Source: Callorhinchus milii (lineage: Eukaryota). From it: DNA of 64,000 bases. Positions 53,001 through 56,000 of this stretch are shown in pieces (the first letter of the stretch is position 1; the number at the start of each line of letters is the position of its first letter). The stretch covers positions 14,324,001-14,388,000 of the forward strand of contig NW_024704742.1 in NCBI RefSeq assembly GCF_018977255.1, in the 5' to 3' direction. Both the position numbers and the translations under genes were made by a program. The notes under the pieces are model-generated. The model saw nothing but the letters and a program-made list of their open reading frames with translations, was not told the origin of the DNA and did no database searches.

Positions 53001-56000
53001 TGTCCTGCTAGGACCACACTATCCATTAGGGTTTTGGCTTACAGCATCTACAAGAGCTGAGTGGAGGACAGTTACAGGAGCAGATACAATGCTGGTGCAA
53101 TAATCTCTGCAAAAGAATAAACTTTGTATTGGATCCTGTTATTTCAATTTAATGATCCAATTCATGGGGTGATAAGTGAGCTGCCTATTAGTACTGGCCT
53201 GAGCCCATAAAAGTACCTGTATTGTTCTTTTAATTAAAAGTGCTTGTATATGTACACTTCAACCTGAATCAGTTGGTAGCACTCTTGATTCTGTGTCAGA
53301 AGGTTGTGTGTTCAAGCCCCACATTGTGAATGTGATCTTATGATCTCATATGATCAAATGTAGTGCTGTTTGTTGCATTTTTGTTGTTGTTGCACTGTTG
53401 GACGTGCCGACCTGCAAATAAGACATTAACCGAAGGTCCCTACTGCCTGTTCAGGTAGACATTAAACATCCCAATAGAACTAATCCAAAAAAAGGCAGTT
53501 TCTCCTGGTGTCCTTGTAACAATCCATACAATAAAAATATAAATGGTAATTCACTTCATGGCTGGTTGTGAGACATTGCTGTGCACAAATTGGCTGCCAC
53601 ATTCACCCACAAAATACACTACACTTTACAATATATCCTGTGAAGTCCTCGGAGACTTTCTCTACATCAAATGTGAGGATTATTATTACTACTATGTTAA
53701 CTATGTTACTATGTGTGAGAACATACTAACAGGCAATGGAGGAAACAAAATACATAGTTACAATGGGCTAAATTGTATTTTTAATTTTGTTACTCTTTCC
53801 TGATAATGCTTTTACATTGGTAGCGATGCACAACTTACTCCTAAAACAGGTCTGGTTTATGTCAATCTGCAAATCTAGTTCAGTTTAAATAATATATTTC
53901 AGAATGTATCCTGCTGCTGTGTGCTGCAGGGTATGGGTGGCCAAGTTAGAATCCTGATCTCAGCTGGTGTTCACATTCAGGTGTCTGCTGGACGTCAAGG
54001 TGTGCAAATGTGGCCAAACCATTGGGGGGCAGAAAAAGCTGCAAAGCTGATGTCAGCCTACAAACTTGTGACAATCATTCTATCCACAAAATATCTATAA
54101 CCCAGATTCTCTTACAAATTGAACTGAGAATAACAATTCAAGATTAAGCAAAAGCTTACAAATAATAATGTTAACATAATAGGCTGTTTCCACTGGTTGG
54201 AGAGTCTATAACCAGGGTACACAAGTATAAGATCGTGACTAGACGGATCTAAAAGAGAATTTAGGAGGAACTATTTCACGCAAGAGGTAGTGAGATTGTG
54301 GAACTCGCTGCCTGAAGCGGTGGTTGAATTAGATAGTATTAGATGCATTCAAGAGGAAGCAAGACCTTCACATGGAGAGGGGAATAAAAGGGAATGGAGG
54401 GGAATAAGGAATGGTTGGATACTCATGTGGAATATATAAACTGGTTGGGCCAAGTGGCCTGTTTCCGTGCTGTACATTCTTTGAAAATATATTTTTTTTC
54501 TAAAAGGTGTATACAATTATTTTTTCATTAAAGCGGACTTCAACAACAACAATTTACATTTATATGGCCCCTTTCACATCTGGAGGATGTCTCAAAGTGC
54601 TTCAGAGATCTGGATGGGAGTTTGAGCTGGAGGGGTTGCAGGAGTTGAGGAAGGGGAGGGAAAAGGTGACCCAAACCACAGTCAAAAACTTTATAACATG
54701 GGCACTTCTCCATACACTGAGCAAAAGTGGTTTCAATCACTTTAGATGTACAGGCATTTTGTCATCTGTCTTAGTAAAGTCATTCAGGTCATTAGTCAAT
54801 GCTAGAGCTCACTGAGATTGTATTTCAAAATGTATTCTGTTCCAAGCTGCCAACAAACCACTGATGTATCTCGATCCTCCCAGTTGGTGCTGAATATCAT
54901 TCCCCACACTCTTCTCATGTAAGATCAACTCTCTCTCTCTGTGCCTGGTTATTCTCATGTCTTTGCAATCTTATTAAACCTACCATGGCAGAGTATTTAC
55001 AAATGTTTAGCGAGCACAGTGCAACTTAATTACTGAAGAACACATTCTGAGGCTGAATTCTCCTCTCCCCTCACTCCCCCATTAAAAAGACAATGGAGGA
55101 AGAATTCCTTTGGGTGTTTTCATAAGTTGTTAAATTACATGTGTCATTAACATAAATCACACTCGACAAATGCCATATCTGGTTTGCTCTATGTATTATT
55201 CATGGAACCACTGCTAATGTGACATGACTTGTTGTTTTGTTTTGATACCTCATAAAACAACTCTTTGAATAGACCCCAGATATATGTCAGGAAGGAAACC
55301 AGTGAAGTGCCTCGGCCACCGCATGAATAAAGTGATTGACAGCAATAAAACATTTTATGCAGCTTTGCAGTCTCTAGACGGTATGGTGGGCAGAGTATGT
55401 GATTTCCCAGCTCCATAGCATCTGAGTAATTTACACCATTTAATGACCTGAAGGTGCAGAGAGAGGCACAGCTACAGGCACTTGGCTTTCAGCAACAGAA
55501 TGACAGAAATTTGTAACCCAACCCATATATAGTAATACTGGCACCCTGCTTGAAATGGGTAAATTAGCTGCATGTTTTCTTTGGAACAGAAACATAATAT
55601 CAGGTCACTTCTGTAAACAGCAGTCTATCAATTGAATGGTAGGATAGCATTTTCAAGAACTTTTTTATACTGTATAAGAAATCCAACTATTTGAAGTGCT
55701 TTGAGATGCTTTCTTATGCAAAAGGCATAAGTGTTCATTGTTCAATTATTTTACTATATATGGATATCCATGTCTGTTTTGGGCATATTGGTAAACTCTT
55801 TCATACAGTAAAACATGAATATTAGCTGAAGATTTATTTTATGATTCTATTCTCAGAATTTGTCTCCACTGCCTTTTCTCCCTCTGTTGTGGGTATTATT
55901 TTGATATTTTTATGCTGCAATTTTGGTAAATATAAACTTTAAAGGAATCCTTGCCTGTTTACTTTATAGTTTTCCACACTAGCATATCAGAAGAACGTTC

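Follow-up and report, generated by a model that had tools for sequence, protein, structure and literature searches.

The 64,000-nucleotide stretch of DNA analysed here (the window: positions 14,324,001 to 14,388,000 of contig NW_024704742.1 in the Callorhinchus milii assembly GCF_018977255.1) holds the whole PRSS12 gene, which encodes neurotrypsin, on its minus strand. Within the first intron of this gene, positions 54979-54836 of the minus strand are very probably a unitary pseudoexon: the decayed first-half exon of the SRCR1 domain of C. milii PRSS12, which marks the loss of SRCR1 from the protein. This reading is carried by the orthology of the stretch to functional exons, its lesions, the relaxed constraint on both halves of the domain, the frame-compatible skipping of the exon pair and the agreement of independent contigs with the window. 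The course of events that we propose is as follows. The ancestral jawed-vertebrate gene would have coded for a kringle, SRCR1-4 and a protease, with each SRCR domain on two exons (phases 1, 2, 1). Later, among chimaeras, both SRCR1 exons would have been dropped from the productive mRNA, and exon 1 (phase 1) is now predicted to be spliced to the first half of SRCR2, whose exon begins at 46877 (also phase 1), giving a 730-aa protein with three SRCRs. The first-half exon of SRCR1 has lost its GT donor, has a net gain of 5 nt and stops in two frames, and departs from the orthologs at many otherwise invariant residues; the second-half exon is formally intact, evolves without the constraint of the other domains and is unusable alone. 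Decay presumably followed the loss of use.

Identity and orthology of the relic exon

Profiles were built from the first and second halves of SRCR1 (SRCR1a and SRCR1b) of 13 orthologs, namely 5 elasmobranchs, Latimeria, 5 teleosts and 2 frogs, and were searched against the 1016 stop-to-stop pieces of at least 8 aa that lie in the six frames of 46600-62100. The first-half profile matches the piece 54805-54924 of the minus strand at E 4.1e-12; the sole better match is the functional SRCR2 first-half exon (E 2.8e-23), and the next one after the relic has E 0.13. The same search, over both strands of 46600-62100, found no intact SRCR1 first-half exon elsewhere in the first intron. Hence the claim of the original prediction, made from the letters of the window, that this is the only piece of intron 1 resembling an SRCR1 first half is borne out by the ortholog profiles. 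The second-half profile gives a single match, at 47956-48174 of the minus strand (E 2.9e-19). The pseudoexon stretch is single-copy in the assembly. It is orthologous to a functional exon and occupies the expected place in the gene: an SRCR follows directly on the kringle in 13/13 of the compared orthologs. The Pfam SRCR stretches number 4 in the ortholog of the skate Leucoraja, 4 in a C. milii paralog (P0043) and 3 in the NCBI model of C. milii neurotrypsin (P0001).

We further built a maximum-likelihood tree of 36 SRCR domains, comprising SRCR1-4 of C. milii PRSS12, those of six PRSS12 orthologs and those of two paralogs; C. milii SRCR1 was entered as a read-through of the two relic exons with X at the breaks. 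The tree recovers four domain classes, and the read-through falls inside the clade of chondrichthyan PRSS12 SRCR1 domains with support 99/94. This grouping with the SRCR1 of sharks and rays upholds the SRCR1 identity that had been assigned to the stretch. The terminal branch of the read-through is 0.57 long; those of the elasmobranch SRCR1s measure 0.10-0.15, and C. milii SRCR2-4 have branches of 0.04-0.16. Its pairing with the catshark inside the clade is probably a long-branch effect.

The same tree bears on the alternative that the stretch is an SRCR fragment which came into the intron as a copy, its source being a different SRCR gene or some other PRSS12 exon. Sources for such a copy would be plentiful, as SRCR domains are very many in this genome (at least 150 matches were scored among 397 candidates). 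However, the tree places the stretch with the SRCR1 of PRSS12 orthologs and not with SRCR2-4 or the paralog; the stretch is found where an SRCR1 first half should be, past the kringle exon and ahead of its second half, on the same strand and with the expected phases; and its DNA likeness to the other SRCR exons tested is negligible, extending over at most 34 nt at about 80%. We regard a copied fragment as next to impossible.

Lesions of the first-half exon

The relic, its acceptor and its lesions are given below in the order in which the minus strand is read; a slash marks a splice boundary here and in what follows.

54980..54981, minus strand: kept AG acceptor, with a weak pyrimidine tract before it (..ctctgccatggtag/G); the exon begins at 54979
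54836..54979, minus strand: relic of the SRCR1 first-half exon, 144 nt (profile match, tree, position, phase)
54945..54950, minus strand: candidate 6-nt (two-codon) insertion, without counterpart in 13/13 orthologs in a MAFFT alignment; the placement depends on the alignment
54929..54941, minus strand: (AG)n run CAGAGAGAGAGAG, over the position of the conserved G-R-V-E motif
54922..54923, minus strand: most parsimonious frameshift site, CT where the orthologs have the Val codon of GRVEVY, read as a 1-nt deletion
54915..54917, minus strand: TGA stop of the frame entered from exon 1 (translation)
54892..54894, minus strand: TTC (Phe) for the first Cys of the domain (WGxxC), a Cys invariant in the 13 orthologs
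54834..54835, minus strand: AT in place of the ancestral phase-2 GT donor (by the paralog donor at the homologous position)

The acceptor keeps phase 1, and the frame that enters from exon 1 runs through 21 residues before it meets the TGA. The remaining homology lies in a second frame of 28 residues, itself closed upstream by the TGA at 54927-54925. As compared with the orthologs the relic is longer by a net 5 nt, which is the sole firm part of the reconstruction of its indels; the ancestral exon would accordingly have measured 139 nt. The most parsimonious history, on alignment of the sequences, would combine an insertion near 54950-54945 with a 1-nt deletion at 54923-54922, six bases downstream of the (AG)n run. 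The C. milii paralog on contig C7 has AG/GTATTG at the homologous end of its own SRCR1 first-half exon, which supports the AT at 54835-54834 as a replacement of an ancestral GT; the next GT past the lost donor is at 54812 (GTGAGC). The stretch thus carries disabling lesions of frame, stop and splice site: a net gain of 5 nt, a TGA in both homology-bearing frames and AT at the donor position. Seven residues of SRCR1a that are invariant in the orthologs are changed: G>R, G>E, E>D, V>frameshift, G>R, C>F and A>T. In the frame-3 piece of the pseudoexon the Pfam SRCR profile aligns over positions 15-40 of 100, only half a domain, with 21 bits.

All the details listed in the original prediction were found where it had placed them on the minus strand: the kept phase-1 acceptor (AG 54981-54980, exon start 54979), the frameshift by the (AG)n run that leads into a TGA (run 54941-54929, site 54923-54922, stop 54917-54915), the Cys-to-Phe change in WGxxC (codon 54894-54892) and the AT for GT at the donor (54835-54834).

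The partner second-half exon

The match of the second-half profile corresponds to a further exon that the NCBI model leaves out:

47985..48157, minus strand: SRCR1 second-half exon, 173 nt, with an open frame of 57 codons (E 2.9e-19)

Its acceptor is ttttgtccag/T (phase 2) and its donor AAA/gtaatg (phase 1), and its open frame ends in ...TVTCNE. When 54836 is joined to 48157 the split codon is completed and both relic exons share one frame, which shows that splicing formerly linked them across a phase-2 boundary. The domain therefore lay on two exons, 54979-54836 and 48157-47985, and the functional SRCR2 and the paralog are split alike. It follows that the original prediction, by which PRSS12 has lost SRCR1 and a dead first-half exon remains, was right about the relic at 54979-54836 but understated what is left, because the second-half exon survives too.

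The second half is likewise recognizable as no more than half a domain, covering positions 62-100 of 100 of the Pfam profile with 25 bits; hence both relic halves stay below the profile cut-off of 26.1. The read-through also lacks the full set of six cysteines: the first is Phe and the fifth is Tyr, the latter lost within 47986-48156 of the minus strand, where the skate has Ser at the corresponding place. We take the two replaced cysteines to be the C2 and C7 partners of one group A disulfide. The open frame of the second-half exon has gained two new cysteines, one at an Ala that is invariant in the 13 orthologs and one five residues before the lost Cys. In a passage of PMC3100851, group A SRCR domains are described as having six cysteines and two exons, and C2-C7 is named among the disulfides of group B.

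Relaxed constraint on both halves

The constraint tests are at the protein level. Among the columns that are invariant in the 13 orthologs, C. milii has changed 7/18 in SRCR1a, 1/9 in SRCR1b and 7/263 in the other domains; by Fisher's test the excess in SRCR1a has p 3e-6 and that in SRCR1b is not significant (p 0.24). Among the columns invariant in the 5 elasmobranchs the changed fractions are 12/32 for SRCR1a (p 1.7e-6), 7/24 for SRCR1b (p 1e-3) and 28/441 for the other domains, and by this measure the two halves are alike (p 0.58). On a fixed species tree, the ratio of the C. milii branch to those of the elasmobranchs is 4.15 for SRCR1a, 1.87 for SRCR1b and 0.32-1.38 for the other domains; in its functional domains, C. 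milii shares 72-91% identity with the elasmobranchs. Constraint on the unitary pseudoexon is thus relaxed with respect to the rest of the gene: both SRCR1 halves evolve without the constraint seen in the other domains, and the first half alone is formally broken.

The host gene and its predicted transcripts

Searches with tblastn of P0001 and of a skate neurotrypsin (P0005) show that the window holds PRSS12 in its entirety: all 11 coding exons of the NCBI model map to the minus strand in order. The functional exons that matter here are:

61978..62356, minus strand: coding part of exon 1, with signal peptide, Ala/Pro-rich stretch and kringle (identity to P0001; Pfam Kringle)
46727..46877, minus strand: SRCR2 first-half exon, the first SRCR exon of the annotated mRNA, with a phase-1 acceptor
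33451-33274, minus strand: SRCR2 second-half exon (tblastn)
about 31715 and 30628-30407, minus strand: SRCR3 exons (tblastn)
28994-28851 and 19478-19254, minus strand: SRCR4 exons (tblastn)
down to the stop codon 1737-1739, minus strand: protease exons (tblastn)

The translation of 62356-61979 is 100% identical to residues 1-126 of the 730-aa NCBI neurotrypsin [Callorhinchus milii] P0001 and 55-62% identical to the neurotrypsins of sawshark, skate and catshark; this, with the 11 ordered exons, confirms that the gene is PRSS12, as had been proposed. Pfam finds Kringle, 3 SRCR and Trypsin in P0001. The gene hence has the kringle, the SRCR repeats and the trypsin-like protease of a PRSS12 ortholog, and its domains group with their PRSS12 counterparts, apart from the paralog. 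Exon 1 ends at 61978 in phase 1, carrying over a single G, and its donor is GTGCGT. The first intron extends over about 15 kb.

In the NCBI model the kringle exon is joined straight to SRCR2, leaving three SRCRs. Exon 1, 46877-46727 and 33451 onward in this order reproduce the first 227 aa of P0001 (227/227), such that the join of 61978 to 46877 keeps the frame when both SRCR1 exons are skipped, as the original prediction had reasoned. Its further claim that PRSS12 has lost SRCR1 agrees with the absence of SRCR1 from the NCBI model and its presence in 13/13 orthologs. In comparison, all the conceptual products that include a relic exon stop early: at aa 148 for exon 1+1a+1b+SRCR2a, at aa 135 for 1+1b+SRCR2a and at aa 148 for 1+1a+SRCR2a, with exon 1 joined to 48157-47985 alone giving a stop after 8 codons. 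By conceptual translation, then, the sole productive mRNA is predicted to be the one that skips both relic exons.

An Ensembl-derived UniProt model (P0002) has 772 aa and includes pieces of the dead exons. Three devices secure its open frame: a mini-exon placed at about 59260, a start that falls within the broken exon, and the use of an acceptor internal to 1b. The mini-exon peptide, GLVLSTQ, maps to about 59260 of the minus strand, in the middle of intron 1, and looks like an invention of protein-guided gene building that imitates GLVRLQ. P0002 should be regarded as a homology artefact and the shorter NCBI model as the one to trust. The relic exons thereby explain why two public gene models, one of 730 aa with three SRCRs and one of 772 aa, disagree. 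A search with residues 60-235 of P0002 for shorter public proteins that span the junction returned only fragments of SRCR2-like exons from other genes, at 73-78% identity, and the protein searches with this gene turned up no neurotrypsin from another chimaera.

Sequencing reads and alternative explanations

A search for sequencing runs found none on record as RNA. Four runs were aligned to 46600-55100 at 80% likeness, a threshold at which transposon copies dominated the matches. Raw reads at the frameshift and the donor had been suggested as a check on the lesions, and there the contigs of two studies match the window without any indel. That of run X1 (DNA-like, study P1) extends over 54573-54938 and takes in the frameshift site, the two stops, the Phe codon and the donor position; it shows 0 differences and 0 gaps. 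The contig from run X4 (study P2) extends over 54454-55100 and has 0 gaps and a single differing letter. Run X4 was also considered as RNA, a classification we rejected on account of its even, DNA-like cover of the intron. Run X20, from a related organism, shows 13 differences in 204 letters (6%) over the SRCR2 exon and roughly 85-90% likeness in pieces of the intron; its depth is 2.44 in the SRCR1b bin and 0.37 in the pseudoexon bin.

Several observations weigh against reading 54979-54836 as a pseudoexon left by the loss of SRCR1. By itself, the frame-1 head of the relic is not significant (E 3.2) and is backed only by its position, phase and acceptor. The second-half exon keeps its open frame and both of its splice sites; under an assumed indel rate, the probability that a 171-nt frame would remain untouched is about 0.34 at a neutral divergence of 0.05 and 0.11 at 0.10, and the intact exon fits either a loss that is not too old or some residual use. 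As regards the DNA runs, the single mismatch of X4 falls somewhere within 54454-55100, and either X1 or X4 may have been sequenced from the assembled animal. Of 14 low-copy bins, the RNA-like run X7 covers just one, 54836-55100, at a depth of 6.9, which may stem from pre-mRNA, from inclusion at a low level or from stray alignment; its depth in the remaining 13 is 0. Finally, the skipping of both exons in vivo is a prediction from the NCBI model and the early stops.

One alternative is that the lesions are errors of assembly or sequencing, or a rare allele, in a species that normally has an intact four-SRCR neurotrypsin. The frameshift lies in a context prone to length errors, next to the (AG)n run, and the best DNA runs may be from the assembled individual itself. 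Nevertheless, two runs from two studies agree with the window, the separately built P0002 agrees with it in the Phe and in the letters at the donor position, and the stretch has no second copy in the assembly. The damage is moreover multiple: 7/18 invariant residues, a two-codon insertion, the lost donor and stops in two frames. Given the two agreeing contigs and the number and kind of the lesions, an assembly error is very unlikely to be their cause, and we give the wider alternative, the rare allele included, hardly any credence.

A different alternative, which could coexist with the domain loss, is that the relic exons are dead for coding but are still spliced into some transcripts as unproductive or 'poison' exons. 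Such transcripts could pair the acceptor at 54979 with a cryptic donor GT at 54812, or be spliced at the intact sites flanking 48157-47985, and would be degraded because of an early stop. The kept AG at 54981-54980 and the GTGAGC donor at 54812 would serve this route, as would the good acceptor, the donor and the open frame of SRCR1b, and the depth of X7 over the pseudoexon bin, in a stretch that is single-copy, counts in its favour. Paralog cross-alignment is a possible but weak source for that depth, the paralogous exons matching the pseudoexon stretch over at most 31 nt at 81%. X7 also leaves the two bins that hold 48157-47985 without cover, which carries no weight as evidence. However, the depth of X7 may be no more than pre-mRNA or a stray match at the 80% threshold, the acceptor at 54979 has a weak pyrimidine tract, the single NCBI model leaves the relic exons out, and the relaxed constraint on both halves speaks against a conserved regulatory role. 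On balance we hold unproductive splicing of the relic exons to be unlikely. A more specific version is more doubtful still: that the second-half exon remains in use and forms, together with the kept acceptor of the first half, an unproductive pair that tunes neurotrypsin output via nonsense-mediated decay. If true, the fossil would be a domain turned into a regulatory switch.

Relation to other neurotrypsins

The loss of SRCR1 in C. milii can be set beside several known configurations of this gene and its relatives. The four-SRCR PRSS12 of elasmobranchs and bony vertebrates, for example Leucoraja (P0005), Scyliorhinus (P0006) and Latimeria (P0021), is the same gene as that of C. milii, with the same exon order and kringle-SRCR-protease layout; in these orthologs SRCR1 comes right after the kringle, whereas in C. 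milii it consists of two unused exons, one of them broken. Mouse neurotrypsin resembles that of C. milii in having one SRCR fewer than its relatives (three, as against four in human). The mouse belongs to a different lineage from the chimaera, however, and from phylogeny the two losses would be independent. A passage of PMC9616769 gives neurotrypsin 3-4 SRCRs and equates murine SRCR3 with human SRCR4.

In the sawshark Pristiophorus japonicus the predicted isoform X4 (P0003, 717 aa) shows, like C. milii, an in-frame removal of one SRCR's worth of sequence. The parts removed are the SRCR2 second half and the SRCR3 first half, leaving a hybrid domain, and the isoform is one of the alternative products of a gene with intact exons. 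In C. milii, unlike P0003, the SRCR1 a+b pair is missing and one exon is damaged beyond use. That P0003 skips a different exon pair in frame indicates that the regular exon phases of this gene make such skips easy.

The C. milii paralog P0043 (814 aa, C7:13183222-13184894) likewise has a kringle, SRCRs and a trypsin domain, and the homologous phase-2 position is also where the first-half exon of its SRCR1 ends. It differs in having four SRCRs and an intact GT donor, and its domains form a separate clade in the domain tree. The SRCR1 and SRCR2 first-half exons of this paralog are both intact, and it has a shark counterpart (P0040).

A full-text search, going by the papers listed, found no description in the literature of SRCR1 loss in C. 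milii neurotrypsin; the single paper in which gene and species occur together, PMC4359090, deals with zebrafish Ndst genes, to judge by its title. The process is a known one and this is a fresh instance of it, with the loss already implicit in the NCBI gene model. As such it provides a clean, datable case of the loss of an internal domain from a multidomain extracellular protease: regular exon phases allow a pair of exons to be dropped without loss of frame, after which these exons, no longer used, decay where they lie. The case further points to SRCR1 of neurotrypsin as a domain that at least one non-mammalian lineage can do without, in addition to the reduced form known from the mouse; this might be of some use in dissecting the accessory domains. 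This is an ordinary domain loss by exon decay, of modest importance, and opens no new question.

Other features of the window

Transposon remains lie at 44185-45300 and 54178-54640. One of these is a plus-strand open frame that we take to be a fragment of a LINE reverse transcriptase. High-copy elements adjoin the pseudoexon and reach depths of thousands in the DNA runs. In the first intron, a compound (GT/GAGT)n microsatellite of 1.4 kb (60549-61944) begins about 35 bases past the exon 1 donor and yields false minus-strand open frames of more than 500 aa (THTHSL...). A G/A-rich, low-complexity region with short tandem arrays (23880-27220) lies in the intron that separates the SRCR4 exons; its GC content is 0.56-0.58 and its GC skew 0.39-0.45.

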